A DNA stretch of 64,000 bases, from NCBI GenBank assembly GCA_021731695.1, contig JAKFWZ010000080.1, forward strand, positions 34,021-98,020. Reading direction: 5' to 3'. This stretch comes from Candidatus Daviesbacteria bacterium (GTDB taxonomy: Bacteria; Patescibacteriota; Microgenomatia; Daviesbacterales; UBA10151). Each line of letters opens with the position of its first letter. Positions within the stretch are counted from its first letter, which is position 1. Made by a program: the position numbers and the translations under genes. Below, piece by piece: positions 6,282-42,700 of this stretch. Below the pieces are notes generated by a model. That model saw only the letters and a program-made list of their open reading frames with translations, ran no database searches and was not told the origin of the DNA.

Positions 6282-6465
6282 CGAGCTTAGAAACAAAGAC
6301 CGTAAAGATTTTGCGAAGGAGCTATCAGGGGAAAAGCGGACTCTGACGATTAGTCAGATGTCCGAAGGGGCAACCTCCCCGATTAGCGACTGAGAAAAAT
6401 TAGGCCGACTTTCCAGCGAGCAGAGTTTTGGTACTTTTGCGGTCAAAAGTACAAAGAAAGAATTT
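6282..6465 (+). repeat. Family-2 about 200-bp repeat element, copy A (TTTTGCGGTCAAAAG hairpin family)
   Basis: shares the tcagggga core and terminal hairpin gtacttttg-cggt-caaaagtac with copies at 9986, 10201, 27355, 42484. Confidence 0.8.
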
Positions 6466-6505
6466 TGCCATCAAAAGTGGCTAAAAAATATAACTGGATC
6501 CCAGA

Positions 6506-7186
6506 TCAAGTCTGGGATGACAAAGTTATTGCCTCTGCTTTCACTTCATCCAATATCCCAAACTCTTCTTCTCTGATAACTCTCTCCGTTCTTTGAATCG
6601 GCACAAGCTCCCCAGATCTCTCAACCCCAGCCCAAAACTCTGCATTCACATTCCGCTCTATTTCTTTTGCTCTTTCTTGCAAACTTTCTGGTGTGTCATC
6701 TTTTAAAATATCAAATGGTTTGTATATGACTAAATCTCCTTTGTCAAACTCTGGCGAAACTAAATGAATACATATTTCACTATTGAATTCACGGTTTACT
6801 CTTTTAGAAAAATTGAGCACTGCAACATGAACCGCTAGACCTTTCATCCCTTTGCCCCCAAAGTCTGGATGACCGGGATCCAGAGGAGCAGAATGACTAT
6901 TCGTCATTTTGCCTTGATATTTATTCACAACATTTAAAGGAGTCAACAATTCCCAGCCATTATGAGAAATAAAGTCAACCTTATATTTATTAAAGATTGT
7001 AAGTAGCTCCTCACCAAATGCTTCAGATTCCTTACCCTGCCGCAGAACAATTTCGACCGGTACTCCTGCATTTTTTGCTCTTTGAATTATTCCTGCCTGA
7101 GGATTATTCGTTACAACAACCGCCGCATATTTAAACAGAACTTCTGCAGTTGTTCCCTGACCTGATGCTAAAATTGCTAATTTCAT
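6506..7186 (-). CDS. purN: formyltransferase, PurN-like (phosphoribosylglycinamide formyltransferase family)
   Basis: Formyl_trans_N fold (MKLAILASGQGT ...); divergent around the catalytic loop; clustered with folD and glyA. Confidence 0.6.
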   Translation of the reverse strand: MKLAILASGQGTTAEVLFKYAAVVVTNNPQAGIIQRAKNAGVPVEIVLRQGKESEAFGEELLTIFNKYKVDFISHNGWELLTPLNVVNKYQGKMTNSHSAPLDPGHPDFGGKGMKGLAVHVAVLNFSKRVNREFNSEICIHLVSPEFDKGDLVIYKPFDILKDDTPESLQERAKEIERNVNAEFWAGVERSGELVPIQRTERVIREEEFGILDEVKAEAITLSSQT

Positions 7187-7191
7187 ATGAC

Positions 7192-7271
7192 GTCATTCCC
7201 GCGGAGGCGGGAATCCAATAAATAATACTTGGTCGGAATAATCAAGATTGCGACGCTTCGCTCGCAATGAC
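7192..7271. repeat. Family-1 palindromic element (GTCATT...AATGAC modules), intergenic copy
   Basis: gtcattcccgcggaggcgggaat ... aatcaagattgcgacgcttcgctcgcaatgac; begins 6 nt after the purN start codon. Confidence 0.8.
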
Positions 7272-7300
7272 ATGCTTTAGCAATAAAACAATTTAGCAAT

Positions 7301-8224
7301 TTAACCATTTTTTGACGCCTCCAGTATATTTTCCATCAAAGAATAAATAGTCATTGGTCCGACTCCGCCGAATTTAGGGGTATACATTTTAGCTTTTTCA
7401 TAAGTACTGGGGTCAAAATCCCCTAGGCCTACATCTATTAATATTGCACCCTCTTTTATCATTTCGGAATTAACCAGACTCTGAACTCCGGTGCAGGAAA
7501 TAACCACATCTGCTTCCTGCAAATCATCAAAATTGCAGTCAGGATTTCTTTTATCGAGGCGCAGGATTTTATGGGCATTTTTCATACTTAATTGCTCAAC
7601 TAAAGGTTTTCCCACTTCGCCTTCTGAACCGACAACCCCAAAAACTGTTTCTTTATACCAATTTTCGTCATCGCGAAGCGAGATCGCGGAGGCGTCATCG
7701 CGAAGCGAGATCGCGGAGGCGTCATCGCGAGGTGCTTTCTCCGAAGCAATCTCAGAGCTTACGGGGATTGCTTCTTCACTTCGTGATATCGCAATGACTT
7801 CTTCCAGAATCTTCATAACACCCAAAACAGTCGCTGAGACAAATGGGCTGTCTTCTTTCATTCCGTCAATATCTTTTTTCGAATCAATTAAATTAATCAA
7901 ATCCCATTTTGTTTTATCTTTCAAAAAGTCTCTGCTCAGAGGAAGTTGAATCATTATCCCCTTAACCTCGTCGGTTTCGTTTAAACTCCGAATCTTTTTA
8001 GCAACATTTTCAAAGGAAGTATTAACAGAAAATTTCATAGGCAAAAAGTCGATGTAAAATTCATCGGCTTTTTTCTGCTTCATTTGGGTATATAAAAGAG
8101 AATTGGGATCACTGCCGATTAAAATGCTCACTACAAGAGGCCGTTCCTTTAAGGCACCTAATTTAGTTTTTAATTTGTCACCCAGCCTATCAGCTAAAGC
8201 TTTTCCGTCAATAATTTGAGACAT
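7301..8224 (-). CDS. folD: bifunctional methylenetetrahydrofolate dehydrogenase/cyclohydrolase with tandem in-frame element insertion
   Basis: FolD signature (IIDGKALA, QLPLP-like, GVGPMT); insert 7666-7803 encodes AIPVSSEIAS...[20 protein letters not shown]. Confidence 0.85.
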   Translation of the reverse strand: MSQIIDGKALADRLGDKLKTKLGALKERPLVVSILIGSDPNSLLYTQMKQKKADEFYIDFLPMKFSVNTSFENVAKKIRSLNETDEVKGIMIQLPLSRDFLKDKTKWDLINLIDSKKDIDGMKEDSPFVSATVLGVMKILEEVIAISRSEEAIPVSSEIASEKAPRDDASAISLRDDASAISLRDDENWYKETVFGVVGSEGEVGKPLVEQLSMKNAHKILRLDKRNPDCNFDDLQEADVVISCTGVQSLVNSEMIKEGAILIDVGLGDFDPSTYEKAKMYTPKFGGVGPMTIYSLMENILEASKNG

Positions 8225-8278
8225 TACTATTAGTATATCTTATTGACACAGGAAAATTAAGCCTTATAATATTATATT

Positions 8279-8551: not shown

Positions 8552-9873
8552 TCTATCCCGGGAACCGGGAACTTCTCTGTAAATTTCGCAATTTCCTTTT
8601 TAATTCTCAAAAGTTTTTTATTTCCGGCAATTTCCTTTTTAAAATTCCTAATATATTCAGCTCTTTGCTCTTTTTCTTTTGGAGTATCATGTCCTCTAAT
8701 CTCTTCCAAAGCCTCTTTAATCCAGGCTGCAATTTGCACCATTTCTTTTTCTTTCATTCCTCTTGTAGTCAGCGCCGGAGTACCGAGCCTTATTCCTGAA
8801 GGATAAAAAGGTGAAACCGGCTCGTTTGGAATGCTGTTTTTATTAACAGTAATTCCTGCAGTCTCAAGCGCGTACTGCCCCTGATAACCCATTCCGTAGC
8901 CATAATCTGTAAGACTCAAAAGTACAAGGTGAGTTTCGGAAATCGTTCCTAATTCTTTTGCCAGAACCGCAGCATTCTTTGCAATTTGTTCACCGTATTT
9001 CTTAAACGATGGCTTTAGCGCTTCCTCCAAACAAACTGCAATCGCAGCTGTTGTATGGTTATGAGGACCACCCTGCGCGCCCGGAATTAACGCCCTTTCG
9101 AGTTTGGTTTTAAGTTCAGGATCTTTTTTCATTCCGCGATCCGTAACCATAATCATCGCGCCTCTTGGACCTCTTAGCGTTTTATGCGTCGTAGTCATAA
9201 TAATGTCAACATATGGAACAGGTGATTCGTGTGCGCCGGCAATAATTAAACCGGTTATATGCGAACAATCTGCAACTAAAACTGCTCCGACTTTATCAGC
9301 AATTTTTCTGAATTTTTTATAATCAAGCTTAAAAGGGTATGCAGTTGTTCCGGCCCAAATTAACTTTGGCTTATGTTTAATCGCTAATTTTTCAAGTGCA
9401 TCAAAATCAATCTTCCAGTCCTTTCCAACCTCATAGTTCACGGCCTTATAAAAAATGCTTGAAAAACTTAAGTTCGCACCATGGGTTAAGTGGCCTCCAG
9501 ATGCAAGCGAAAGCCCCATAACCACATCTTTTGGTTCGCAAACTGCCATAGTGATGATTAAATTAGCCGGAGAACCTGAATATGGCTGAACAATTGCCGC
9601 GGGAACACTAAATAACTTCTTTGCTAAATCAATCGCATAATTTTCAATTTCATCAATAACCTCATTTCCGCCGTAATATCTTCTTCCCGGGAATCCTTCA
9701 GAATATTTATTAGTTAGAATTGAGCCTAAAGCCTGTAAGACTTCCGCTGAAACATAATTTTCAGAAGGTATCATTTCCAAGCCTTCTTTCTGACGGATTT
9801 CTTCTTTTTTGATAAGCGAATAGATCTTTGGGGAATTTTTCTTTAAAGCCGAATAGTTTATCGGGTTAGCCAT
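8548..9873 (-). CDS. glyA: serine hydroxymethyltransferase
   Basis: SHMT PLP-lysine motif TTTHKTLRGPRG and full-length homology. Confidence 0.92.
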   Translation of the reverse strand: MANPINYSALKKNSPKIYSLIKKEEIRQKEGLEMIPSENYVSAEVLQALGSILTNKYSEGFPGRRYYGGNEVIDEIENYAIDLAKKLFSVPAAIVQPYSGSPANLIITMAVCEPKDVVMGLSLASGGHLTHGANLSFSSIFYKAVNYEVGKDWKIDFDALEKLAIKHKPKLIWAGTTAYPFKLDYKKFRKIADKVGAVLVADCSHITGLIIAGAHESPVPYVDIIMTTTHKTLRGPRGAMIMVTDRGMKKDPELKTKLERALIPGAQGGPHNHTTAAIAVCLEEALKPSFKKYGEQIAKNAAVLAKELGTISETHLVLLSLTDYGYGMGYQGQYALETAGITVNKNSIPNEPVSPFYPSGIRLGTPALTTRGMKEKEMVQIAAWIKEALEEIRGHDTPKEKEQRAEYIRNFKKEIAGNKKLLRIKKEIAKFTEKFPVPGID

Positions 9874-9985
9874 TATGACTAGTGTAATTTACATTGAAGT
9901 TGATAAAGTGTCAATATGCGAGATAAGAGATACGTAAAACGAGATACGCTAACTCAAAGATGAATAGAATTTCCAAATAATTTTC

Positions 9986-10160
9986 CTTCCACTTTTGACG
10001 CAAAAGTGGAGCAAAACATACTCGCTGGAAAGTCGACCTAATTTTATTCAGTCGCTAATCGGGGAACCTTACCCCTTCGGCTTTTTTGCTAATCACAAAA
10101 AACCGAAATCCCCTGATAGCTCCTTCATAAAATCTTCACGGTCTTTGTTTCTAAGCTCGT
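9986..10160 (-). repeat. Family-2 repeat element, copy B (inverted orientation)
   Basis: reverse complement matches copies A/D/E; hairpin variant ccacttttg-acgc-caaaagtgg shows compensatory changes. Confidence 0.8.
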
Positions 10161-10200
10161 CTTTAAAAGGCTTTGATTTATTTGAACACAAAAATAAATT

Positions 10201-10450
10201 GCGAGCATGAACGCAGCACCGTTGCTTTGCGAAGCAAAGGGCGTATTAGAATTCTTGAGTGAGCTGTCAGGGAGTGTCGGCTTCAGTTTACTGAAGACCG
10301 AAGTGGGCTCTGCACGAAGTGCGAGCGGGAGTCTAAATGACTCCCCGGAATGTCCCGACAAGTGAACGAAAGAATTTAGGCGACCGTTCCTGTCTCGCAG
10401 AGTTTTGCTTCTTTTGCGGTCAAAAGAAGAAAGAAAGAATTTTGTGATCA
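10201..10450 (+). repeat. Family-2 repeat element, copy C
   Basis: core tagaattcttgagtgagctgtcaggg and hairpin cttcttttg-cggt-caaaagaag. Confidence 0.8.
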
Positions 10451-10466
10451 AAGTAACAAGTAAGAA

Positions 10467-12122
10467 TTAACTATTAAAAATTTCTGAAGCTATTTTTATA
10501 ATTTCATCATCAGCTGCAACTTCCACATTCGCCACTTCCTCAATCCCAACCAATCTTTTGCCCAACCTTGTTGAAACTTTCACAGGCTTTCCTAAGACTT
10601 CAGCTAAAATTGACTCAAGTAAATTTCTTGATTTAGGCGCCTCCAGAATCCTTTGATGAAATGAATAGGGAACTTCGAGAATAACATTCGAACCATCACA
10701 ATTTACAACTTTTGTTTGTTTTAAAAGAGCCTCAAGCGAATAATTATAAGGCTTAATTGTTTCCAATATATAGGTCCATTTATCACTGATTACAATTACA
10801 TCGTCAGTCGACTGCATATCATCAACTGAAGGAATTGGCTCGGATTTGGACGATGGAGGATTGATGATAGAAAATGGGTTTTTGGGAATAGAAGGCTGAG
10901 AATAGACTTCTTTTTCTATTCTTCCAACTTCTACCTTCAAAACACTATCTTCCATCCTACTATATTCGACCTTCGGTTGTTCCTTTGATATGCTTTTCAC
11001 AACCGCAACTTCCAGAGGTAAAACTGCAAGAGTTGTGTACTTAAGTTGTTCTAAAACAGCCTGGAAATTTTCAATGTATGAAACAATTTGTCCGATCTCA
11101 GATTTATCCGCAAAACCCTTAACTTCTTCCCACTTTGCAGTTCCAAGTTCAGATTTAATTGGTTCAACAACTCCATTTTTAGTAAGCATCACAGACCTTA
11201 AAGTCTTCAAAACCAGGTTCGTGAATTCCTTTATATTCGCACCCTTTTCGCTCAAGCTATTAATCAATACTAAGCATTCAGTAGATTTTTTTTGCTGAAT
11301 TAAATTAAGTAAGTTCATAATCTCAGAAAAATCATTTGCTTTAAGCAATGCGCGAACTTCTTCCGGAGTTTTAACGCCTGATGAAGCTATCTGATCAAGA
11401 TTTTTAACAGCATCCCTGAAACTGCCTTCACTTCTTTCGGATATTAAGCTTAAGATTTCATCATTCAATTCCAATTTTTCTTTTTCTGCAATATCTTTAA
11501 GCACTGATTTAATTTGATCACCGGAAGCTAAATTGAAATCAAATCTTTGCACACGGGATAAAATTGTCTGAGGGATTTTTCGATCCTCAGTTGTGGCTAA
11601 AATAAACAAAACGTGTGCAGGCGGTTCTTCTAAAGTTTTCAGAAGCGCATTGAATGCTTCAGGAGTAAGCATATGAACTTCATCGATAATATAAACTTTC
11701 ATCCTCGCTGAGCTCGGAGAAAGTTTGATCTTTTCGCGCAAGTCACGGATATCATCAATTCCCCGGTTTGAAGCGGCATCAATTTCGATCAAGTCCATGT
11801 TAGAACCGTCGGTTATTGAGATGCAGGCTGAGCATTTATTGCAGGGAATCTTTAAGTCGCTAGAATCTAGAGTCGAGAGTCTAGGGGTTTCCTTTTTTTC
11901 ACTAGATTCTAGACTCTGGCGACTAGACTCCTGCGCTTCACAATTTACAAGCTTTGCCAGAATCCGGGCTGTTGAAGTTTTTCCTGATCCTCTTGGGCCG
12001 ACAAATAAGTATGCATGTCCTAATTTTCCCAGGCTAAATGCATTTAAAAGAGTTTTTTTAACATGATCCTGCCCGATAAGTTGTTCAAAATTTTGAGGTC
12101 GGTACTTGCGATAAAAAACCAT
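10467..12122 (-). CDS. dnaX: DNA polymerase III subunit gamma/tau
   Basis: MVFYRKYRPQ start, Walker A GPRGSGKTS, zinc module; in-frame palindrome at 11859-11932. Confidence 0.9.
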   Translation of the reverse strand: MVFYRKYRPQNFEQLIGQDHVKKTLLNAFSLGKLGHAYLFVGPRGSGKTSTARILAKLVNCEAQESSRQSLESSEKKETPRLSTLDSSDLKIPCNKCSACISITDGSNMDLIEIDAASNRGIDDIRDLREKIKLSPSSARMKVYIIDEVHMLTPEAFNALLKTLEEPPAHVLFILATTEDRKIPQTILSRVQRFDFNLASGDQIKSVLKDIAEKEKLELNDEILSLISERSEGSFRDAVKNLDQIASSGVKTPEEVRALLKANDFSEIMNLLNLIQQKKSTECLVLINSLSEKGANIKEFTNLVLKTLRSVMLTKNGVVEPIKSELGTAKWEEVKGFADKSEIGQIVSYIENFQAVLEQLKYTTLAVLPLEVAVVKSISKEQPKVEYSRMEDSVLKVEVGRIEKEVYSQPSIPKNPFSIINPPSSKSEPIPSVDDMQSTDDVIVISDKWTYILETIKPYNYSLEALLKQTKVVNCDGSNVILEVPYSFHQRILEAPKSRNLLESILAEVLGKPVKVSTRLGKRLVGIEEVANVEVAADDEIIKIASEIFNS

Positions 12123-12131
12123 AAGTTGGAA

Positions 12132-12227
12132 ATAAAACCAATTCCCAATATAACAAATAAAACCAATTCCCAATAATCGTTTTCATTGGGCATTTGGCAT
12201 TGGTTTATTGGATTTATTGGTTTATTA
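12132..12227. repeat. CCAAT/ATTGG-rich intergenic palindromic element
   Basis: aaaccaattcccaata x2 ... attgggcatttggcattggtttattgg. Confidence 0.6.
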
Positions 12228-12238
12228 AGTTAAAGAGA

Positions 12239-12670: not shown

Positions 12671-12744
12671 TGCGAGGAGTGAAACGACGTGGCAATCTTG
12701 ATTAAATCAGGATTCCTACGCGCATTTCATGCGCTCTGAATGAC
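12666..12744. repeat. Family-1 palindromic element, intergenic copy
   Basis: gtcattgcgagg ... ggcaatcttgatt ... aggattcctacgcgc-atttcat-gcgctctgaatgac. Confidence 0.8.
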
Positions 12745-12750
12745 AAAACA

Positions 12751-13203: not shown

Positions 13204-13308
13204 GTCATTGCGAGGAACGACCTGCCTACCGTCAGGCAGGAGTGACGTGGCAATCTTGATTAAAGCAAAATCAGGATTCCTACGCGCACTCTGTGCGCTC
13301 TGAATGAC
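13204..13308. repeat. Family-1 palindromic element, intergenic copy
   Basis: gtcattgcgaggaacgacctgcctaccgtcaggcagg ... gcgctctgaatgac. Confidence 0.8.
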
Positions 13309-13313
13309 AAACC

Positions 13314-17488: not shown

Positions 17489-17848
17489 ATTCTCACCTCC
17501 TTTCGGGCATAAAAAAGCCCTTGCAAGCTCACTATTTATCTGGATTCCAGATCAAGTCTGGAATGACAATAGTAAACTCACAAGGGCCTTGAATAGGCGG
17601 TACCACCTTGTACTAATTATCTATGAATGCTAATCGCAATTCTTGCTTTTAGCAATAAAAAACCACCTCGCGGTGGAAGACTCAAAGATAATTCTCATTG
17701 AGCGCTCCGTTACCGACACGCTTTGCAGTACTTTTACGGTTAGCTCCCGTCATAGTTATTAGCTATGCAGCTTGTTTGGTAGGATGCCAAACTCAAATGC
17801 TTTTCTAAACTTAATAAATTATAGCAAAATTAGCGGAAAAGTCAAAAT

Positions 17849-26480: not shown

Positions 26481-26643
26481 TCAGAGCGCATGTAATGCGC
26501 GTAGGAATCCTGATTATTTTTGTCATTCCGGTGAAAACCGGAATCCAGGCTTTGTTTTTCTGGATCCCGAATCAAGTTCGGGATGACAACAATCAAGATT
26601 GCTCTTTCGAAAGTCGTTCAGACTTTCTCACGCTCGCAATGAC
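26476..26643. repeat. Family-1 composite palindromic element; first module overlaps dcd start codon
   Basis: gtcattcagagcgc-atgtaat-gcgcgtaggaatcct ... gtcattccggtgaaaaccggaatccagg ... gttcgggatgac ... ctcgcaatgac. Confidence 0.8.
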
Positions 26644-26675: not shown

Positions 26676-27326
26676 TCAAGAGGGAGATTGCAAAAGCTTT
26701 GTTTCAACTTCTTTCCAAATCTCAGCCTGGATTTCTTCCCTAGTTTTAGCTCCATCCATAATCACAGCATCATCCATTTCCTCAAACACTTCCAAAAACC
26801 CTTCTCGCCGAGTTCGCAAAACATCAATTTCAAAACTGTTGTAGGCATGAATTTCAGTTCCCCTTCCTTCGTTTTCGCGTTTTAAAATCTCCTCTGCAGG
26901 AACATCAATCAAAATCGAAAGATCTGGTTTTAAATGCTGCGAGGCTTTTTCGCCCTGAGTTTTGATCATATTTTTATCAAGCCCTTCCTGATAGCCCTGA
27001 TAAACGATAGCTGAAGCTATAAATCTCGTTAAAATAATCCATTTTCCTGAGGCTAAAGATGGGATTATTAATTCATCAACAAGAGATTTAAGAGCTTTAA
27101 ACAAAAAATCCAATTCCTCATCAGGTGTTAAAACTCCGGCTTCTTTTTTCTCCAAAAGCTGCTGACGCATTTTCTCTGCAAAATCAGTCCCTCCGGGATG
27201 TCTTAAAGAAATCGTCTCAATGCCTTTCTCGTTTAAAACCTGGGCTAACATATTAGCCTGCGTAGTTTTACCCGTAAACCCCTGCCCTTCAATAACGATG
27301 AAACGTCCGTTCATAATAACCAACAT
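26676..27326 (-). CDS. tmk: thymidylate kinase
   Basis: P-loop IVIEGQGFTGKTT, DRF-like motif, LID region. Confidence 0.85.
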   Translation of the reverse strand: MLVIMNGRFIVIEGQGFTGKTTQANMLAQVLNEKGIETISLRHPGGTDFAEKMRQQLLEKKEAGVLTPDEELDFLFKALKSLVDELIIPSLASGKWIILTRFIASAIVYQGYQEGLDKNMIKTQGEKASQHLKPDLSILIDVPAEEILKRENEGRGTEIHAYNSFEIDVLRTRREGFLEVFEEMDDAVIMDGAKTREEIQAEIWKEVETKLLQSPS

Positions 27327-27354
27327 ACAAGTTTTCCAAGTAAATCACAATATT

Positions 27355-27530
27355 GCGAGCTTGAAACAAAGCGCGTATAGAATTTTTGAGCGAGTTATCA
27401 GGGGATTTCGGTTTTTTGCGATTAGCAAAAAAGCCGAAGGGGTAAGGTTCCCCGATTAGCGAACGAAAAAATTTAGCGCGACTTTCCGCGAGTAGAGTTT
27501 TGCTACTTTTGCGGTCAAAAGTAGGAAGAA
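27355..27530 (+). repeat. Family-2 repeat element, copy D
   Basis: tagaatttttgagcgagttatcagggga ... gctacttttg-cggt-caaaagtag; followed by a Family-1 module at 27541-27589. Confidence 0.8.
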
Positions 27531-27581
27531 AAATAAACAAAATCAAGATTGCCACGCCACTTCGTGGTCTCGCAATGACAA

Positions 27582-29216
27582 CTATTTGGATTTCTGAGAG
27601 GATGCTTCTATGAAGCCTAAGAACATTGGGTGTGGATTTAAAGGCCTTGATTTTAACTCCGGATGGAACTGAGAACCCGCAAAGAACGGATGATCCGCGA
27701 GCTCGATCACTTCAACTAATTTTCCATCAGGCGATGTACCAACAATATTAAATCCATTTTTCTCAAAATCAGCTCTGAAATTATTATTAAACTCATATCT
27801 GTGTCTGTGACGCTCTGAAGTCTGCCTGCCGGCAGGCAGGTTTCCCCATTTTTTATAAAGTTCTCCAACTTTCGATCCTTCTTTTAGAACACAATCCCAG
27901 GCTCCAAGTCTCATTGATGCACCGTAATCTTTATCCAAAAGCTTTTTAATTTGATCTGGCATAATATGAATTATCGGATTTTTAGTTTTCTCATCAACCT
28001 CAGTTGTATGAGCATCTTTCAAGCCTAAAACATTGCGGGCAAATTCAATCGAAGCCAGCTGCATTCCGTAACATAATCCAAGATATGGAATTTTATTTTC
28101 CCGTACATATCGAACAGCTTTAATTTTTCCTTCAACATCTCTTGAACCAAATCCTCCCGGGACAATAATTCCGTCAAATTTCGAAAGCTGCTCGACACTA
28201 TGTTCAAGCTTAGAGGCATCAATCCAGGTTATCTCAGGCTTAACCTTTAGCTTATAGGAGGCATGTTTTATCGCCTCAATAACCGAAATATACGAATCCA
28301 TTAATGTAAAATCACCGGTAGTGAAATATTTGCCTACAATTCCAATTTTGACGGGCCTGTCAGTAGTTTCACTAGAATCAACAAACGCTCTCCATTCTTT
28401 TAAATCAGTATTTTTTCTCTCAAGTCCAAGTTTACCCAGGATTCTATCCGTTAAACCCTGATCCTCGAACTTTAATGGAACAGAGTAAACATTTTTAACA
28501 TCCGGAGCGGAGATTATATACTCAGGCTCAAGACCTGTTGAAATTGACAGCTTTTTAATTCTTGATTGATCTAAAGGTCTTTCTGCACGGGCCAATATAA
28601 TATCAGGTTGAATTCCTACAGCATTTAAGTCACGCACTGACATTTGTGCAGGTTTTGACTTCATCTCACCGAGCGAACCGGGGATTGGTAAATAAGTTAC
28701 GTGAATATGGAGCACATCATCGTGTTTCTTAAGTTTTAACTGACGATTAGCCTCGAGAAACAGAACATTTTGATATTCTCCTGCAGTTCCACCAATTTCA
28801 ATTAAAACTATATCTGCATTTTTACTTTTTCCGGCTTCTTTTATTCTGCCGATAATTTCTTCGGTGATATAAGTTACGACGTCAATTGATGCTCCGTCAT
28901 ATTCTAAATTTCTTTCTTTTTGAATAACAGATAAATAAATTGAACCTTGAGTAGCGATATTCGAATTATTTAAAGATTCTCCTAAATATCTTTCATAATG
29001 TCCGAGGTCTTGGTCTGTTTCCGTTCCGTCATCAAGCACGAAAACTTCTCCGTGTTCTATCGGATTCATAGTTCCAGCATCGACATTAAGATAAGGGTCC
29101 ATTTTCATGGGGGAAACTTTATATCCCGCAGCTTTTAAGAGGAGAGCAATCGAGGCAGTTGCAATGCCTTTTCCAATTCCTGATATAACACCACCGCTAA
29201 CAAATATGTACTTCAC
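27582..29216 (-). CDS. pyrG: CTP synthase
   Basis: N-terminal synthetase domain (FVSGGVISGIGKG), C-terminal GATase (GLCYGMQ, HRHRYE). Confidence 0.92.
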   Translation of the reverse strand: MKYIFVSGGVISGIGKGIATASIALLLKAAGYKVSPMKMDPYLNVDAGTMNPIEHGEVFVLDDGTETDQDLGHYERYLGESLNNSNIATQGSIYLSVIQKERNLEYDGASIDVVTYITEEIIGRIKEAGKSKNADIVLIEIGGTAGEYQNVLFLEANRQLKLKKHDDVLHIHVTYLPIPGSLGEMKSKPAQMSVRDLNAVGIQPDIILARAERPLDQSRIKKLSISTGLEPEYIISAPDVKNVYSVPLKFEDQGLTDRILGKLGLERKNTDLKEWRAFVDSSETTDRPVKIGIVGKYFTTGDFTLMDSYISVIEAIKHASYKLKVKPEITWIDASKLEHSVEQLSKFDGIIVPGGFGSRDVEGKIKAVRYVRENKIPYLGLCYGMQLASIEFARNVLGLKDAHTTEVDEKTKNPIIHIMPDQIKKLLDKDYGASMRLGAWDCVLKEGSKVGELYKKWGNLPAGRQTSERHRHRYEFNNNFRADFEKNGFNIVGTSPDGKLVEVIELADHPFFAGSQFHPELKSRPLNPHPMFLGFIEASSQKSK

Positions 29217-29713: not shown

Positions 29714-31921
29714 TTATGCGTTGGCAATAGCCGGATCTTTAGGTTTGGTCCACGAAGCATATTTGCAATTAGGATAATTTTTACATCCGAAAAATGTCTT
29801 GCCTCTTTTAGTTTTTCTTACTACAACGTCCCCTCCGTCATCCGGACATTTTACATCAAGTATTTGTTCAATTCGCTCGGTGTGTTTGCAATCGGGGAAT
29901 CCTGAACAGGCAAGGAATTTACCAAATTTTCCAGTTCTAACAATTAATTGCTTTCCGCATTTTGGACAATTTTTATCAACAGTTTCAACTTCAAGCACTA
30001 CCCTTTCTGCAGTTTCTTCAATAGTTCCGAGCTTTGCTGAAAGAGGCTTAAAATAAGTTGCTACAGTTTCTTTCCATTCCTTTTCTCCTCTTGAAATATC
30101 ATCCAATGAATCCTCCATTTGAGCCGTAAATTGATAATCAAATAGTTCAGGAAAATGCTTCATTAAGAAATCATTAACGGTCATTCCGAGAGAAGTCGGA
30201 TTAAATTTACGCTCAGTTTTTTCAACATAATACCGATCCTGAATTGTTGAAAGAATCGGAGCATAAGTCGATGGGCGACCAATTCCCAGTTCTTCAAGTT
30301 TTTTAACAAGTGAGGCTTCGGTAAATCTGGGAGGAGGTTGAGTGAAATGCTGAAGTGGCTTAATTTCTTTTTGTTCTAAAGCTTCACCTTCTGTTAAATT
30401 AGGAATCTTTTGATCTTCAGCTTTATTTTTTTCTTCGCCTTCAACCTTTTCCTCTTCCTCTTCTTCTTTATCAATTCCGTAAACTTTAAGCCATCCGGGA
30501 AATTTTAATTGTGAACCAGTTGCTCTTAAATTGTATTCGTCATCGCGAAGCGAGATCGCGGAGGCGTCATTGCGAGCCGCAGGCGAAGCAATCTCAGAGC
30601 TTACTGGGATTGCTTCTCCACTTCGTGGTATCGCAATGACGTCAACTGAAGTTTGATCAAATACCGCATCATTAACTTGCGAAGCAACTGTTCTCTTGAA
30701 TATGAGGTCATAAAGTCTTTTGTGATCACGGGTAAAATTATCTCCTTTTAGCTTTTCAGAATTTAAATTCACATCTGTAGGCCTGATTGCTTCGTGAGCT
30801 TCCTGTGCATTTTTTGATTTAGCTTTGTAGAAGCGCGCTTGAGCTGGCAAATATTCTGCCCCTAAATTTGCAGAAATATAATCTCGTGCCATTCCCAAAG
30901 CTAAAGTTGAAAGATTGACGGAATCAGTTCTCATGTAGGTTATATATCCCTGCTCATAAAGGTTTTGAGCAATCATCATAGTTTTTTTCGCAGACATACC
31001 TAGTTTATTGCCTGAAGTTTGCTGCAAGGTTGAAGTGGTAAATGGCGGAGCAGGAGACCGTTTAACTTCTTTTTTAGTAATGGCTCTAACTGAATAAGCA
31101 CTTTGCTTAAGGTTTCCAACGATTTTTTCAGCCTCATCACTATTGTTTATAACTGCCTTTTCCCTGTTGATTTCCGTAAGTTGGGCTGTAAAAACCTTCG
31201 ACTCTTTCGACCCCTCCGACTCCTTCGAATCTAGCAATACTTCTATACTCCAATATTCGTTAGCTTTAAACGCTTCGATCTCGCGCTCACGCTCTACGAT
31301 TAAACGCAAAGCCACAGATTGTACACGACCCGCAGACAGACCTCTTTTTATTTTTTTCCATAATACCGGAGAAAGTTTATAACCGACTAAACGATCCAAA
31401 ACTCTGCGTGCTTGTTGAGCATCGACCAGCTGCAGATTAATTTCGCGCGGATGCTCAAAAGCTTCCATAATTGCGTTCTTTGTAATTTCATGGAATTCAA
31501 CACGCCGAATGGACGGTAGATGACCGATGATAGAAGATGGTTTTTTGAGAGTAGAAGATTGAGAATTGATTTTCTTATCTACTTTCAATCCTCCATTTTC
31601 CGCCCCTACCTTCAATTTTCTATTTTCCATCGTCATAATCTGAGCTAAATGCCAGGCAATTGCTTCTCCTTCACGATCAGGGTCGGTGGCCAGATATAAA
31701 ACATCTGCACCCTCCATCATCTTTTTTAATTCATTAACTTTCTTCTTTTTATCTCGCGGGATTATATATTTAGGCTCAAATGTTTCCTCGTCAACTCCGA
31801 TTTCAGCTTTTGGCAGATCACGGATATGACCCATCGAAGCTTCGATTTTATAATTCTTACCTAAAAATTTTGAAAGTGTTCTCGCTTTTGTAGGCGATTC
31901 GACGATTACAACGTTTTGCAT
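29714..31921 (-). CDS. topA: DNA topoisomerase I with in-frame element insertions
   Basis: Toprim (IVESPTKA), catalytic Tyr region, C-terminal C4 zinc ribbons; inserts at 30538-30641 and 31196-31233. Confidence 0.92.
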   Translation of the reverse strand: MQNVVIVESPTKARTLSKFLGKNYKIEASMGHIRDLPKAEIGVDEETFEPKYIIPRDKKKKVNELKKMMEGADVLYLATDPDREGEAIAWHLAQIMTMENRKLKVGAENGGLKVDKKINSQSSTLKKPSSIIGHLPSIRRVEFHEITKNAIMEAFEHPREINLQLVDAQQARRVLDRLVGYKLSPVLWKKIKRGLSAGRVQSVALRLIVEREREIEAFKANEYWSIEVLLDSKESEGSKESKVFTAQLTEINREKAVINNSDEAEKIVGNLKQSAYSVRAITKKEVKRSPAPPFTTSTLQQTSGNKLGMSAKKTMMIAQNLYEQGYITYMRTDSVNLSTLALGMARDYISANLGAEYLPAQARFYKAKSKNAQEAHEAIRPTDVNLNSEKLKGDNFTRDHKRLYDLIFKRTVASQVNDAVFDQTSVDVIAIPRSGEAIPVSSEIASPAARNDASAISLRDDEYNLRATGSQLKFPGWLKVYGIDKEEEEEEKVEGEEKNKAEDQKIPNLTEGEALEQKEIKPLQHFTQPPPRFTEASLVKKLEELGIGRPSTYAPILSTIQDRYYVEKTERKFNPTSLGMTVNDFLMKHFPELFDYQFTAQMEDSLDDISRGEKEWKETVATYFKPLSAKLGTIEETAERVVLEVETVDKNCPKCGKQLIVRTGKFGKFLACSGFPDCKHTERIEQILDVKCPDDGGDVVVRKTKRGKTFFGCKNYPNCKYASWTKPKDPAIANA

Positions 31922-34617: not shown

Positions 34618-34624
34618 GATTTAA

Positions 34625-34765
34625 ATAAACCAATAACCCAATATACAAATAAACCAATTCCCAATGGAATTGTCTTGGGACGTTGTCTAAAACCAATTCC
34701 CAATTTTACTTTTTAAATTTTATTGGGCATTTGGCATTGGGTTATTTGTTTATTGGTTTATTCAT
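34625..34765. repeat. CCAAT/ATTGG-rich intergenic palindromic element
   Basis: aaaccaattcccaatgg ... aaaccaattcccaat ... attgggcatttggcattgggttatttgtttattgg. Confidence 0.6.
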
Positions 34766-36915: not shown

Positions 36916-37027
36916 AAATTGATTATATCACCCCGAAAAAGCCCGTAGCATCATTAGATATTCAACAGAATGAAGAGCAAGAAGATAAGCTAAGTTATTT
37001 TTTGGGAGGTCAGTTCCCATATATTAT

Positions 37028-37513: not shown

Positions 37514-37554
37514 CTTAAATGAATTATATTTTATGAAATCTCATAGTCAATATA

Positions 37555-39399: not shown

Positions 39400-39434
39400 T
39401 TTAAACGCAGTTTTTAAAAGAGGCGTTGCCTCAT

Positions 39435-39878: not shown

Positions 39879-39887
39879 TATTTAATA

Positions 39888-39990
39888 AAACCAATAAACA
39901 AATAACCCAATAAAACCAATTCCCAATTTATTTTTCCTGCCTTTTATTTGGCATTGGTTTTATTTGCATATTGGCTTCATTGGTTTATTC
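39888..39990. repeat. CCAAT/ATTGG-rich intergenic palindromic element
   Basis: aaaccaataaacaaataacccaataaaaccaattcccaat ... ttggcattggttttatttgcatattggcttcattgg. Confidence 0.6.
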
Positions 39991-39995
39991 CTTAT

Positions 39996-40787
39996 TTACT
40001 CACCCACAATAAACACTAAATCCAAGTCTCCTATATTAAAAACTGGCTTAACCTTTGCCTGCTTGAATGCCTCCTCGTCTTTTTCAATAATTTCTGTCAC
40101 CTGACCTAAAACTAAACCTCTCGGGATTTCAATTTCCTGACCTTCTGAATAAACTAAATTATTTACCTCAATCGGCTCTTCGTGCAAAATTTTATCGAGT
40201 AACATTTCAGAACCAAACTGTCCGACTAGTAGTCCCTTTGCTCTGCCTGCATCAGATTGAGAAAAGGCAGTTAGCCTGGAGTCGGGGTCTGATGCTAAAA
40301 CTACTTTTGATCTTTTTGGATCAACCTCGAACACTTTTCCAATATAGCTATCTTTAAAAACAACAGCCTGATTAACTTTTATTCCATCATCGCTGCCTTT
40401 ATCTATAAGAAGAAATCTTGAAAATCCAATCGGCCGTGCCGGAATTAAATTAAAAACCTCATCACTCAAAGCTTTGTCCTGATCCAAAAACGCTTGTGTT
40501 TCGGCAAGTTTTTTTCTTAAACTCGCATTTTCAGAAAGCACCAGCGCAAGCTGTTCGCTCAATGCTTTATTTTCCTGACTCGCTTTTCTGGCGTTAACAA
40601 TATATCCAAACTGACCGGAAACATTTAAATAGCTCCTAAAAAGACCATATTGAATCGGAACTGTGACATTTTGGACCAAAGATTTTGGCAGATTCAGGAA
40701 TTTAAAACTGTCTAAAAAAATCAACACAACTGCGATAAAAAGCAACAATCCATATACTTTTATATCTTCAAGGATTAGCTTCACCAT
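39996..40787 (-). CDS. mreC: rod shape-determining protein MreC
   Basis: N-terminal TM, coiled coil, beta-barrel domain; start moved to internal ATG (MVKLILED) to avoid overlapping pyrF. Confidence 0.8.
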   Translation of the reverse strand: MVKLILEDIKVYGLLLFIAVVLIFLDSFKFLNLPKSLVQNVTVPIQYGLFRSYLNVSGQFGYIVNARKASQENKALSEQLALVLSENASLRKKLAETQAFLDQDKALSDEVFNLIPARPIGFSRFLLIDKGSDDGIKVNQAVVFKDSYIGKVFEVDPKRSKVVLASDPDSRLTAFSQSDAGRAKGLLVGQFGSEMLLDKILHEEPIEVNNLVYSEGQEIEIPRGLVLGQVTEIIEKDEEAFKQAKVKPVFNIGDLDLVFIVGE

Positions 40788-40833
40788 TAGGTTGTTAATG
40801 TAGCATAAATATGGTACTCTTTGACAGGACAAA

Positions 40834-41664
40834 ATGGCCGATTCATTCATAGAAAAGCTAAAACAAAAATGGAATGAAGACCGTTTTATTTGTATCGGCT
40901 TAGATTCAGATTTCTCCAAAATCCCTCAAAGTTTCAAAGATCAAAGTTCAGATTCAGAAGTTCCAATCGAAGGAGCCATTTATGAGTTCAATAAATCAAT
41001 CATTGATTCAACTCATGACCTAGTCTGCGCCTATAAAATCAACAGTGCATTTTATGAAGCAGATGCTCAAACCTGGGAAGCAATGCTAAATACCTTTTAT
41101 TACATCCAAAGAACATATCCTGAAATTCCGGTTATCTTAGATGCAAAACGCGGAGATATCGGAAATACGAATCAGGGTTACGTAAAAATGGCTTTTGAAA
41201 CTATAAAAGCTGATGCAATTACAATTCACCCATATTTAGGACAGGAAGCAAATCAGCCGTTTTTAGATCAAAAAGACAAAGGCATAATTGTTTTAGTTAG
41301 AACTTCGAATGAAGGCGCAGGAGAATTTCAGGACCTTCCAGTTAGTGGTCGCCCGCTTTATGAGATAGTTGCAGAAAATGTTGCAACGAAGTGGAATACA
41401 AACGGAAACTGCGCAGTTGTTGTTGGAGCAACTTATCCGGAAGAGTTAAAGAAAGTTAGGGAAATTGTCGGAGATATGCCTATTTTAGTGCCTGGAATTG
41501 GAGCCCAAGGCGGAGATTTAGAAGGAGTTTTAGCAAATGGACTTAATAAAGAAAAGCAGGGATTGATAATAAGTTCCTCAAGGGCAATAATCTACGCAGA
41601 TGATCCGAGAATGGCTGCGCAGGATTTGGACCAGAAAATTTCGTCATTCCACCGGACCAAGTGA
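40834..41664 (+). CDS. pyrF: orotidine 5'-phosphate decarboxylase (type 2)
   Basis: long-form OMPdecase motifs (ICIGLD, DAKRGDIGNT). Confidence 0.85.
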   Translation: MADSFIEKLKQKWNEDRFICIGLDSDFSKIPQSFKDQSSDSEVPIEGAIYEFNKSIIDSTHDLVCAYKINSAFYEADAQTWEAMLNTFYYIQRTYPEIPVILDAKRGDIGNTNQGYVKMAFETIKADAITIHPYLGQEANQPFLDQKDKGIIVLVRTSNEGAGEFQDLPVSGRPLYEIVAENVATKWNTNGNCAVVVGATYPEELKKVREIVGDMPILVPGIGAQGGDLEGVLANGLNKEKQGLIISSSRAIIYADDPRMAAQDLDQKISSFHRTK

Positions 41665-41772
41665 AACTTGGGAGGTCGCTTGCAAAAAATGTCTAAACGA
41701 CAATTTTTGACAAGGGGGCGAAGTCTGGAATCCAGGCAAATCACACTGGATCCCAAATCAAGTTTGGGATGA
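41643..41772. repeat. Family-1 palindromic element between pyrF and pyrE
   Basis: gtcattccaccggaccaagtgaaacttgggaggtcgcttgc ... ggaatccagg ... ctggatcccaaatcaagtttgggatgac. Confidence 0.8.
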
Positions 41773-41783
41773 CAGGAGAAAAT

Positions 41784-42434
41784 ATGAACACAGAAACATC
41801 TAAACAAGTTGCAAAAATATTACTTGAACTTAAAGCTATAACGCTTAAGCCAAACGAGCCTTTTAAATATGCTTCAGGAATTTTATCGCCTGTTTATACA
41901 GACTGCAGAGTGATTATTGCCTATCCTGAAAAAAGAAAAGAAATCAGGGATTTATATATAGAAGCTATTGAGGAATCAGGTGTTGAATTTGATATCGTCG
42001 CAGGAACTGCCACTGCCGGAATTCCTCATGCCGCCTGGATTGCAGATAAATTAGAGTTGCCGATGATTTATGTTCGGGGCAAAGCGAAAGATCACGGTAA
42101 AGGAAATACTGTCGAAGGAATAATCGAAGAAGGGCAATCAGCAGTAGTTATTGAGGATTTAGTTTCAACCGGAGAAAGTTCGATCAATAGTGTTAAAGCA
42201 ATCGAAGAAGCCGGCGGAAAAGTCTCGCACGTTTTTTCAATCATTCAATATGGTTTAGATAAAGGAAAAAATAATTTTAGCGAGAATAATATAGAACTTA
42301 TATCGCTGACAGATTTCAAAACAGTTGTCGAAGAAGCGCAAAAAATGGGTTATATAAATGAAGAGGAAATTGAAGTGGTTATGGATTGGATCGCGGATCC
42401 CGAAGGCTGGGGCAAAAAACACGGGTTTGAATAG
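41784..42434 (+). CDS. pyrE: orotate phosphoribosyltransferase
   Basis: PRPP-binding motif VVIEDLVSTGESS; AGGAG SD upstream. Confidence 0.88.
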   Translation: MNTETSKQVAKILLELKAITLKPNEPFKYASGILSPVYTDCRVIIAYPEKRKEIRDLYIEAIEESGVEFDIVAGTATAGIPHAAWIADKLELPMIYVRGKAKDHGKGNTVEGIIEEGQSAVVIEDLVSTGESSINSVKAIEEAGGKVSHVFSIIQYGLDKGKNNFSENNIELISLTDFKTVVEEAQKMGYINEEEIEVVMDWIADPEGWGKKHGFE

Positions 42435-42483
42435 ATTTAATGAAGCGAGCTATGAAAGCAGCTCTCTTTTAGTAGGCGAGTCC

Positions 42484-42700
42484 TGAACGCAGCGCCGTTT
42501 GAGTTTAAAGTTTTTGTCTAAGAACAAAGCGCGTTTAGAATTTTTGAGTGAGTTGTCAGGGGATTTCGGTTTTTTGTGATTAGCAAAAAAGCCGAAGGGG
42601 CAGCCTCCCCGACTAACGAACAAAAAAATTTAGCGCGACTTCTCGACAAAAAGAGTTTTGCTACTTTTGCGGTCAAAAGTAGAAGAAAGAAAAGAAAAAA
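42484..42700 (+). repeat. Family-2 repeat element, copy E
   Basis: tagaatttttgagtgagttgtcagggga ... gctacttttg-cggt-caaaagtag; Family-1 module 42701-42739 follows. Confidence 0.8.

Follow-up and report, generated by a model that had tools for sequence, protein, structure and literature searches.

The window, by which we mean the whole 64,000-nucleotide stretch analysed here, holds housekeeping genes and, between them, five copies of a non-coding element of about 180 nt (170–240 nt), termed Family 2 (Table 1). A covariance model (CM) was built from the five copies and scanned over the entire window with filters off. Only these five were returned, at 141–200 bits and E values of 3e-33 to 1e-47, the next-best match having an E value of 0.09; Family 2 is a real repeat family, far beyond chance. 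Apart from small boundary corrections from the CM scan and the sequence, the copies lie where the initial annotation had placed them, within operon junctions and in either orientation, and the core sequences it quoted are correct. ORFs overlapping the copies (27289–27555; 10125–10451, minus strand) are consistent with spurious calls, the explanation it had given for ORFs at the copies.

Table 1. Family 2 copies, their settings and their terminal hairpins in the window
Feature	Position	Strand	Details	Basis
Copy c1	6280–6462	+	186.6 bits, E 2e-44	CM, sequence
c1 setting	ybaB 5943–6221; formyltransferase gene 6506–7186	both genes −	c1 antisense to both	Pfam (neighbours)
c1 terminal hairpin	6431–6452	+	GTACTTTTG-CGGT-CAAAAGTAC; alignment pairs 224–232 with 237–245	Sequence, fold
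Copy c2	9981–10161	−	186.8 bits, E 2e-44	CM, sequence
c2 setting	glyA 8548–9873	gene −	Upstream of glyA, sense orientation; head-to-head with c3	
c2 terminal hairpin	9989–10009	−	CCACTTTTG-CGT-CAAAAGTGG	Sequence
Copy c3	10200–10440	+	141 bits, E 3e-33; fold z-score −5.3	CM, fold
c3 terminal hairpin	10408–10429	+	CTTCTTTTG-CGGT-CAAAAGAAG	Sequence
Copy c4	27354–27532	+	199.7 bits	CM, synteny alignments
c4 setting	tmk 26676–27326; pyrG 27582–29216	both genes −	c4 antisense to both	
c4 terminal hairpin	27503–27524	+	CTACTTTTG-CGGT-CAAAAGTAG	
Copy c5	42510–42692	+	198.2 bits	CM, sequence
c5 setting	Phosphoribosyltransferase gene 41769–42434; amidohydrolase/dihydroorotase-like gene 42748–43959	both genes +	Sense orientation	Pfam
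c5 terminal hairpin	42661–42682	+	CTACTTTTG-CGGT-CAAAAGTAG, as in c4	Sequence

The 3' end of c1 faces the stop codon of the formyltransferase gene, and about 25 nt past its tail (to about 6485) are common to c1 and c3. The latter is the most divergent window copy, reaching 219–240 nt in total through added hairpins, one in the 5' strand (GAACGCAGCACCGTTGC...) and two apical; duplex prediction gives its closing helix as GCGAGCA.GAACG / CGTTC.TGTCTCGC, and the stop codon opposite its 3' end is that of dnaX (10467). For c5 the predicted closing duplex is TTTTTGTC/GACAAAAA, and an accessory module, GGCGAGTCCTGAACGCAGCGCCGTT (about 42475–42499), precedes the copy and is also present in c3 and in the related copy L066. 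The copies had been described as usually followed by a Family-1 module, which is true of two of the five, c4 (module at 27547–27579) and c5 (42706–42739); after c1 comes another kind of hairpin module (6486–6522), and after c2 and c3 none. Since the relatives L104 and L055 carry the element without Family 1, the latter is an independent module. The source genome is rich in REP-like hairpin modules of the form GTCAT plus stem.

Family 2 folds into four parts: a closing helix (P0), a rod whose internal loops are conserved, an apex that varies and, on the 3' side, an invariant hairpin. P0 pairs the 5' end with a segment that lies about 45 nt short of the 3' end. The rod is made of short helices split by internal loops conserved in sequence (CAAA/GAC, and two tandem GA/GA loops with a 2-bp helix between them), and the apical junction combines an invariant UCAGGGG...GGGG...CCCCGA core with freely replaceable hairpins. 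On the 3' side of P0 follow a linker, (A/G)GAGUUUUG, the near-invariant hairpin NNN-CUUUUG-CGGU-CAAAAG-NNN and an A/G-rich tail.

Covariation was assessed in an alignment of 22 copies from several genomes, with register-shifted partners and 500 shuffles as controls. Across these copies 92% of the predicted pairs were formed, compared with 43–53% in register-shifted controls, and 38 of 56 pairs showed double compensatory changes, compared with 7–14; the observed pairing and compensation values were reached by none of the 500 shuffles. Both the rod and the hairpin came out again in an independent MAFFT and RNAalifold run, in which 19 of 34 pairs were compensatory. P0 is built from at least nine different complementary sequence pairs and is weakened in c1, c2, c4 and L023, because its 3' strand there reads GCGAG, not CUCGC. 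The stem of the terminal hairpin varies by compensatory changes as initially described, reading CTAC/GTAG (c4, c5), GTAC/GTAC (c1), CTTC/GAAG (c3), CCAC/GTGG (c2) and, in the L104 counterpart of c4, CAAC/GTTG; the CGGT loop ascribed to every copy is CGT in c2, one base shorter than in the other window copies. The secondary structure is supported by covariation and strand-specific, and the selected structure claimed from the hairpin extends well past it over the whole element, with the 22 copies adding covariation. G-U and U-G pairs outnumber A-C and C-A pairs by 59 to 8, and therefore only one strand folds well, namely the sense strand in the orientation given; in c4 the plus strand folds better than the minus strand (z-score −3.6 versus −2.7). 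For the same reason, a double-stranded cruciform site, one of the forms first suggested, is unlikely.

Comparison with relatives revealed that the window copies are insertions. The dnaX|glyA junction spans 37 nt in L099 and L100, compared with 594 nt here, where it holds c2 and c3, and the fmt|ybaB junction, 285 nt here, measures 142 nt (L099), 63 nt (L100) and 15 nt (L102) when free of the element. In L107 pyrG and tmk overlap and their junction is empty of the element, in L105 and L106 unrelated ORFs lie there, and in L104 and L055 it is filled by positional counterparts of c4. Sequence comparison points to turnover and concerted evolution of the copies: with c5, copy c4 shares 83% identity, yet with its counterpart in L055 only 68%. 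In L104, where Tmk is 95% identical, the counterpart departs from c4 through paired changes in the hairpin (CUAC/GUAG to CAAC/GUUG) and in the 2-bp helix, and it has c5-like states as well; L066 is 91% identical to c2, yet lies in a different gene context. The MITE-like behaviour initially proposed thus holds as far as insertion relative to relatives is concerned, whereas a classical MITE was rejected: the element ends have no terminal inverted repeats, and the copy borders show no target-site duplications, flanking direct repeats being no longer than in mismatched controls. The searches yielded neither a mobilising enzyme nor a target-site duplication nor a defined target, and 'mobile' therefore rests here on presence/absence and copy similarity, both of which recombination or gene conversion could also yield.

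No transposase, reverse transcriptase or Cas/TnpB-like gene adjoins the window copies. At 19 other loci the neighbours comprise 111 ORFs and 121 Pfam families, with no family in more than three loci; transposase, reverse transcriptase, TnpB and Cas are absent among the 25 neighbour families listed, and no neighbouring gene family common to the copies was found. The window copies flank glyA, folD, the formyltransferase gene, tmk, pyrG and pyr genes, a nucleotide/folate enrichment, and glyA and the dihydroorotase-like gene have c2 and c5, respectively, upstream on the same strand, which would suit a riboswitch or other cis-regulatory leader in front of genes for nucleotide or one-carbon metabolism. 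However, three of the five window copies are antisense to both neighbours, the neighbours in other genomes are unrelated (trpA, MaoC, NUDIX, FemAB, histidine kinase and others among the 121 families), relatives lack the element at the same genes, and riboswitch models gave no match to it. A gene leader, scarcely credible on these grounds, is effectively refuted by the orientation and neighbour data and was rejected, the neighbours being mutually unrelated.

Another candidate reading is an orphan guide-RNA scaffold (OMEGA/TnpB-, IscB- or bridge-RNA-like); the RNA-guided nuclease or recombinase would be encoded elsewhere, and the flank would be the guide. In keeping with this, the structured RNA is about 180 nt long and multi-copy, its flanks vary, its terminal hairpin is conserved and target-site duplications are lacking. 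HEARO RNA was itself a multi-copy orphan motif until IscB explained it, and HEARO/OMEGA (IscB, TnpB) scaffolds likewise are large, multi-copy, covariation-supported folds on mobile DNA, many without an adjoining ORF. We nevertheless judge this explanation quite improbable: none of about 35 full-length copies adjoins a candidate effector, the Rfam HEARO and IS605-orfB motifs give no match at E thresholds as permissive as 10, the 5' end is held within the fold by P0, the closing helix that locks both ends of the body, and the internal loops are conserved in sequence, not programmable.

A gene stop codon is faced by the element's 3' end in 16 of 23 scorable cases, often at 1–75 nt, a modest bias from cases that are not independent, and gene ends make up 30 of 47 flanks. 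Such placement is compatible with a host-useful RNA element of the REP/BIME/ERIC kind, whose fold in a 3' UTR or inter-cistronic position insulates, terminates, processes or stabilises transcripts, or with a multi-copy small-RNA gene; we consider this possible, if unlikely. Persistence of the pyrG|tmk copy in L104 and L055, with its fold kept in relatives down to 64% Tmk identity, is also expected of a host-useful RNA, and on the minus strand a weak terminator-like CGCGGAAAGTCGCG precedes a T-run. A precedent is the Coxiella QMITE2 repeat of 150–190 bp, which lies in 3' UTRs and is the source of an sRNA (PMC5896051). Against this, close relatives lack the element at the same junctions, and because the folding strand is usually antisense to the adjoining operon, neighbour mRNAs would bear its poorly pairing complement. 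The terminal hairpin is U-rich on the 5' side and A-rich on the 3' side on both strands and is therefore not an intrinsic terminator on either. No consistent upstream promoter and no canonical downstream terminator were found; were the A/T-rich box immediately 5' of P0 a −10 element, transcription would start inside P0, and these points count against the structured-RNA reading favoured below.

QMITE2/CbsR16, the Neisseria Correia elements and enterobacterial ERIC resemble Family 2 as non-coding 3' UTR or intergenic repeats of 130–190 bp that have a stable predicted RNA fold, are present or absent at orthologous sites and may be transcribed. Unlike it, QMITE2, Correia and ERIC have terminal inverted repeats and direct repeats (7–11 bp in full-size QMITE2), and a rod-like fold that merely follows from having inverted repeats; the fold of Family 2 is set apart by its G-U strand asymmetry, by its conserved loops and by a 3' hairpin that lies beyond the closing helix.

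Related copies reach distant taxa. Relatives of full length are present in Levybacteria, in other Patescibacteria and in MAGs titled Gammaproteobacteria; the taxon labels of non-CPR MAGs are record titles only, and the single check of these labels landed on a PrrC-like defence gene, which is mobile, and left them as such. In Pedobacter and Sphingobacterium the 3' hairpin module alone is present, attached to a different body, in either orientation at one orthologous site and in a 4-unit tandem array; a Pedobacter-like contig holds head-to-tail arrays. Rfam, plasmid and phage comparisons of the element gave no match.

The Pedobacter tandem arrays and the two orientations at one site, together with the GTCAT-plus-stem modules of the source genome, the lack of target-site duplications and terminal inverted repeats, the subterminal hairpin close to one end and three head-to-head pairs resembling REPIN doublets (c2/c3, L010, L012), would fit a single-stranded DNA substrate of a trans-encoded HUH/Y1 transposase (IS200/IS605- or REP/RAYT-like) or, attC-like, of a tyrosine recombinase. 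Integron attC sites also share the conservation of structure over sequence, the variable apex, the bulged rod and strand-specific folding, but they span 57–141 nt, carry R/L core boxes, form same-orientation arrays flanking cassettes and need IntI, none of which was seen in the element. Known HUH or attC substrates are far smaller and less RNA-like than Family 2, whose 180-nt fold has about 55 pairs and includes tandem G.A loops and many G-U pairs; the element has a hairpin at one end only, whereas IS200/605 elements have one per end. Its flanks show no orientation bias with respect to gene direction (21 co-oriented, 26 opposed), and Y1, RAYT and integrase are absent among the neighbour families listed. 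A DNA substrate is thus distinctly unlikely.

A self-cleaving ribozyme, or a SINE-like retroposon mobilised as RNA by a reverse transcriptase recognising the 3' stem-loop and A-rich tail, appears very improbable. Conserved unpaired nucleotides lie at the junctions, and two invariant G-runs compete for a single C-run, which suggests a pseudoknot or switch; the conserved 3' stem-loop and A/G-rich tail resemble the 'stringent' 3' handle of LINE/SINE pairs, and the head-to-tail arrays on the Pedobacter-like contig point the same way. However, ribozyme families do not match the element, the neighbour families listed include no reverse transcriptase, the borders lack variable-length duplications, and we know of no bacterial retroposon of this kind.

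REP/BIME/REPIN sequences (RAYT, proteobacteria) are likewise multi-copy, strictly intergenic, often placed right after stop codons, hairpin-forming, free of terminal inverted repeats and target-site duplications, and mosaic with other small modules, with occasional inverted doublets. REPs, however, are 20–40-nt palindromes with a conserved 5' tetranucleotide, belong to lineage-specific families and come with RAYT, whereas Family 2, at 180 nt, folds into several helices, keeps its internal loops conserved, bears an asymmetric 3' module, is common to several phyla and has no RAYT gene in sight.

Taken together, we favour, as an evenly balanced proposition, a non-autonomous, horizontally spreading structured-RNA element whose 3' hairpin is a handle for a trans-acting factor. 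It has inserted into gene junctions that are otherwise very compact, in a Daviesbacteria-like genome (CPR, Microgenomates), where it most likely works as a structured RNA, presumably not as single-stranded DNA, and would be selfish, not in host service. The invariant 3' hairpin and tail would be the handle for a factor that another locus of the genome encodes, and selection may keep the fold because the element needs it for its own spread or persistence.

As the initial annotation had proposed, we built a covariance model (CM) from the five copies of the Family-2 element (c1-c5). Searching the 64 kb with it, filters off, returned exactly those five copies (141-200 bits, E 3e-33 to 1e-47; next best match E 0.09). 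Reading the sequence confirmed the shared cores and the terminal hairpin in all five regions for which they had been described. The hairpin loop was CGGT as claimed except in c2, where it is CGT, and the reported tendency of copies to be followed by Family 1, a separate short hairpin module, held for c4 and c5 only and not for the remaining three. Elements measure 170-240 nt and form about 55 pairs in 8-9 helices, with extra inserted hairpins present in c3. As a structured repeat family, Family 2 is real, well supported and not catalogued so far; we rated it as belonging to the structured non-autonomous intergenic repeats.

Positions of Family-2 copies, comparison loci and other repeats (window coordinates unless a locus in another genome, L-number, is named)
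Feature	Position	Strand	Remarks
c1	6280-6462	+	CM and sequence; junction ybaB / c1 / formyltransferase
c2	9981-10161	-	CM and sequence; junction glyA / c2, c3 / dnaX
c3	10200-10440	+	CM and sequence; junction glyA / c2, c3 / dnaX
c4	27354-27532	+	CM and sequence; junction tmk / c4 / pyrG
c5	42510-42692	+	CM and sequence; junction phosphoribosyltransferase / c5 / dihydroorotase-like gene
P0 3' strand, GCGAG variant, c1	6413-6424
P0 3' strand, GCGAG variant, c2	10018-10029	-
P0 3' strand, GCGAG variant, c4	27486-27496
G-runs and C-run (example)	27399-27405, 27439-27442, 27450-27453
dnaX/glyA junction	9873-10467		hot spot
pyrG/tmk junction	27326-27582		hot spot
The two hot-spot junctions in relatives	L102 1136-1405; L103 14-271; L105 2289-2972; L106 2069-2431
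pyrG/tmk in L104			Tmk identity 95%; Family-2 element, same orientation
pyrG/tmk in L105			Tmk identity 85%; unrelated ORF
pyrG/tmk in L107			Tmk identity 70%; genes overlapping, empty
pyrG/tmk in L106			Tmk identity 68%; unrelated ORF
pyrG/tmk in L055			Tmk identity 64%; Family-2 element, same orientation
Palindrome in Levybacteria copy	L013 ~6870-6891	-
Array of short form	L063 10382-11077	-
Family-1-type module	1691-1730		inside MgsA/RarA-like ORF 686-2107
Family-1-type module	7664-7801		inside folD ORF 7301-8224
Family-1-type module	30536-30643		inside topA ORF 29714-31921
Family-1-type module	42946-43012		inside ORF 42748-43959
Family-1-type module	55639-55775		inside fmt-like ORF 54967-55860
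135-nt repeat	4660-4794, 46761-46895
(G/A)ATGACA-ending modules	6486-6522, 17532-17568, 26552-26588, 41738-41774
Further (G/A)ATGACA-ending modules	12704-12747, 13268-13311, 26470-26515
CCAAT/ATTGG-type tracts	12135-12214, 34619-34751, 39884-40000, 60233-60388, 4800-4860

Single copies folded with z-scores of -3.6 to -5.3 on the sense (+) strand, the complement strand of c4 folded with -2.7, and RNAalifold on c1-c5 alone recorded double changes at 22 of 56 pairs. Relatives were gathered by two hairpin-pattern scans, one of genomes and one of metagenomes, and confirmed with the CM. Across 22 full-length copies, 92% of cells were paired versus 43-53% when partners were slid by 1-3 columns, double changes affected 38 of 56 pairs versus 7-14 under the same sliding, and none of 500 shuffles matched the observed pairing and double-change values. 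Because this alignment had been fitted to the CM, the test was repeated independently with MAFFT and RNAalifold on 16 copies, which again produced the rod and the hairpin, with compensatory changes at 19 of 34 pairs. Both analyses add covariation to that from which a selected secondary structure had been argued, and Family 2 has one hallmark of a structured non-coding RNA, namely a covariation-supported fold on one strand.

The closing helix, P0, in which the 5' end (TGCGAGC...) pairs about 45 nt inside the 3' end and not with the 3' terminus, lies outside the CM and was examined separately. Nine or more pairs of complementary sequences, unrelated to one another, build this helix, among them UGCGAGC/GCUCGCA, CUAGCUU/AAGCUAG, UUCGGCA/UGCCGAA, CAGUCGA/UCGACUG and UUUUUGUC/GACAAAAA. 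Its 3' strand reads GCGAG in c1, c2, c4 and L023 and CUCGC in other copies; the GCGAG variant is a local inversion of 4-5 nt that weakens P0. Unlike the GCGAG copies, the nearly identical copy L066 carries this strand in the complementary version.

Conserved unpaired positions comprise a CAAA/GAC internal loop, two tandem GA/GA loops flanking a covarying 2-bp helix, and the stretches UCAGGGG, a second GGGG and CCCCGA(Y)UA(R)CGA, and a linker, (A/G)GAGUUUUG, is likewise conserved. In the 3' hairpin, the loop and the six inner pairs (CUUUUG/CAAAAG) do not vary except in the divergent copies L010b and L012b, whose inner-pair changes are compensatory. All copies hold two invariant G-runs (UCAGGGG, GAAGGGG) and a single C-run (CCCC), a second C-run occurring in c3 only. 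Competition of two G-runs for one C-run suggests alternative conformations or a pseudoknot; as these columns are invariant, covariation cannot pick the partner.

G-U/U-G pairs were counted 59 times and A-C/C-A 8 times, so the sense strand is the folding strand, and the cruciform site considered in the initial annotation is unlikely in its symmetric, double-stranded form. A single-stranded DNA substrate for an HUH or tyrosine recombinase is rather improbable: so large a fold, with tandem G.A loops and abundant G-U pairs, speaks for RNA over ssDNA.

The window copies are insertions. At dnaX/glyA, relatives with 88-89% GlyA identity have a spacer of 37 nt versus 594 nt in the window, and at formyltransferase/ybaB the spacer is 15-142 nt versus 285 nt; by CM, Family 2 is absent from the relatives' loci at both junctions. 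Orthologous junctions are empty in L099, L100, L102 and L107, and two other relatives have a small reverse ORF at dnaX/glyA instead of Family 2. At pyrG/tmk, about 35 nt of tmk-side flank are common to L104, L055 and the window, and this shared sequence points to a probable common origin of flank plus element. Nevertheless, c4 resembles its paralogues (83% identity to c5, 79-80% to c2 and L066) more closely than it does the L055 copy (68%). Paired substitutions set the L104 copy apart from c4, both in the hairpin (CUAC/GUAG to CAAC/GUUG) and in the 2-bp helix (GC to AU), and c5-like states are present in it as well, which suggests that Family-2 copies undergo exchange. L066 is 91% identical to c2, yet its gene context is different. 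Family 1 is missing beside the L104 and L055 copies and is therefore an independent module.

Among related genomes, the dnaX/glyA and pyrG/tmk junctions are hot spots of insertion, empty in some genomes and in others occupied by Family-2 elements or small unrelated ORFs; these ORFs comprise a reverse ORF of 85-89 aa, another of 227 aa and a 120-aa 23S_rRNA_IVP-family protein. Within the Family-2 5' strand of one Levybacteria copy lies a 20-nt perfect palindrome, CCTGCCTGCCGGCAGGCAGG, which looks like a yet smaller insertion nested in the element.

The copies had been likened to a MITE, and Family 2 is indeed small, non-coding, multi-copy (five copies in 64 kb) and present or absent at orthologous sites. 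Terminal inverted repeats are absent from its ends, the 3' terminus being an asymmetric hairpin plus A-rich tail, and the flanks of 25 copies held no target-site duplications above control, a check that had likewise been proposed (longest word common to 5' and 3' flanks, mean 4.88 nt versus 4.99 nt in mismatched flank pairs). As both hallmarks were tested and not found, Family 2 is not a classical MITE. The window contains no autonomous relative with a transposase, and its larger ORFs, when scanned, were all housekeeping genes. Promoter and terminator scans around Family 2 returned nothing consistent; the GC-skew profile of the window tracks gene direction and is therefore of no use for inferring replication direction.

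In the window, three copies run antisense to the genes on either side and the other two are in sense orientation; GlyA and Tmk have their best matches in Candidatus Daviesbacteria, and look-ups of window proteins by exact sequence found no entry. In 16 of the 23 cases that could be scored among 27 copies, the 3' end points at the stop codon of a gene, a modest bias among cases that are not mutually independent; three head-to-head pairs occur (c2/c3, L010, L012). The genes next to the element in other genomes show no relationship to one another (trpA, MaoC, NUDIX, FemAB, histidine kinase and others), which rules out a conserved leader of one gene family, the alternative that the initial annotation had itself raised. 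A riboswitch or cis-regulatory leader, prompted by the glyA, folD and pyr neighbours, was rejected on orientation and on the neighbours elsewhere, as Family 2 lacks a constant upstream, same-strand place before one gene class; gene leader and riboswitch are both effectively refuted. The 111 ORFs neighbouring 19 other loci gave 121 Pfam families, none in more than three loci, and enrichment by clustering and Pfam detected synteny within genera only and no partner. No transposase, reverse transcriptase, TnpB or Cas was among the 25 Pfam families listed for these ORFs. Earlier multi-copy orphan RNA folds of this kind proved to be guide RNAs or ribozymes; for Family 2, an orphan guide-RNA scaffold is quite improbable, and a ribozyme or SINE-like retroposon very improbable.

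Full-length Family 2 was found in Levybacteria/Levyibacteriota, in a further Patescibacteria MAG and in several MAGs whose records are titled 'uncultured Gammaproteobacteria', these taxon labels being record titles only. One ORF adjoining the element in a 'Gammaproteobacteria'-titled MAG is a PrrC-like mobile defence gene. L026, from a MAG so titled, is 64-69% identical to c1, c2, c4 and c5 and 45% to the divergent c3, the corresponding values for the Daviesbacteria-like L055 being 62-70% and 48%; the core is equally similar between MAGs labelled as different phyla and between related CPR genomes. Pedobacter, Sphingobacterium and relatives carry the 3' hairpin module only, on a different, poorly folding body. 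Without this module the Pedobacter short form folds no better than shuffles (z -0.85), and we therefore treat it as sharing the 3' module alone. In the Pedobacter group two conserved sites carry the module, one following trpA and one flanked by an oxidoreductase gene and maoC; at the latter it stands in opposite orientations in different species (L005/L028 versus L016), and L063 has a head-to-tail array of four short-form units after trpA with a period of about 209 nt.

Rfam 15 at gathering thresholds gave three tRNAs only in the window; searches of the element regions with E up to 10 returned only chance microRNA/Enterococcus-1 matches far below threshold, and loci related to Family 2 had no match. 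Membership in any Rfam family was rejected, no match reaching the gathering threshold. In plasmid and phage collections c4 had no BLAST match, and a hairpin scan of viral contigs gave 14 matches, none with a Family-2 body. In full-text literature searches the hairpin sequence occurred in no paper and the Family-1 sequence gave unrelated, mostly primer-type matches only; the literature on CPR repeats yielded no paper describing Family 2.

REP/REPIN-RAYT elements are imperfect palindromes of 20-40 nt with a conserved 5' tetranucleotide, and Family 2 was set apart from them on size and helix number; that it is a host-useful, REP/BIME-like RNA element is unlikely. IS200/IS605-derived PATEs and TnpB omega/reRNAs have subterminal hairpins at both ends, whereas Family 2 has one at its 3' end only. 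The lack of target-site duplications is compatible with the IS200/IS605 type, but neither tnpA nor tnpB is among the Pfam families listed for neighbouring ORFs, Rfam IS605-orfB and HEARO gave no match with E up to 10, and membership was rejected on the single hairpin and the listed neighbours. Integron attC sites span 57-141 nt with R''/L''-L'/R' boxes and form same-orientation arrays flanking cassettes, together with IntI; the length of Family 2, its mixed orientation and its housekeeping neighbours, which keep their synteny, speak against its being an attC site. Among published elements, QMITE2 of Coxiella behaves most similarly but, unlike Family 2, has inverted and direct repeats (PMC5896051).

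Other small repeats share the window. Family-1-type hairpin modules (GTCAT(T/C)GCGA...GCAATC and relatives) lie inside ORFs whose frames are unbroken, and FolD has about 75 extra residues between its two Pfam domains, exactly at the Family-1 repeats; these modules resemble Rickettsia palindromic elements, which are in-frame insertions into genes. Family-1 sequence also occurs in the Pedobacter-like loci L016 and L063. Another hairpin-rich repeat, AATGAAGCACCACGGGCTTACGCCCGTGG...CCGCGAGCTAATGCTCGTGG..., is present in two 135-nt copies that are 100% identical; it is probably a small element of its own that was active recently. More short hairpin-module families all end in (G/A)ATGACA (for example CTGGATCCCAGATCAAGTCTGGGATGACA), share the foot GTCAT, read on the complementary strand, and often directly follow stop codons; they look like REP-like elements. 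A/T-rich tracts of CCAAT/ATTGG-type short repeats recur intergenically in both orientations (D6, D11, D17, D18; I18, I21, I22).

For Family 2 itself, we consider it an even proposition that it is a non-autonomous element acting as a structured RNA, which would need its fold and invariant 3' hairpin in order to spread or persist by way of a factor encoded elsewhere. It is rather unlikely that Family 2 is the RNA part of an undescribed RNA-centred system crossing phyla, either a protein-independent or trans-mobilised 'bacterial SINE', with the invariant 3' hairpin and A-rich tail as the handle for mobilisation, or else a ribozyme or guide scaffold of a new type. If so, the 3' module on different bodies, the CPR/gammaproteobacterial long form and the Sphingobacteriaceae short form, would point to a modular superfamily.

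In the tiny and densely packed genomes of CPR bacteria, five non-coding 180-nt copies in 64 kb amount to a notable investment or parasite load. The covariation signal is among the clearer ones obtainable from a few dozen sequences, yet it has no Rfam family, and the features that mark the known classes of prokaryotic repeat (terminal inverted repeats, target-site duplications, a linked enzyme) are all missing from the element. Recognising Family 2 would remove spurious ORF calls from CPR annotations, and the 3' hairpin module in cultivable Pedobacter offers an entry point for experiments. Its partner or activity, once found, could bring to light a new mechanism of mobility or regulation.
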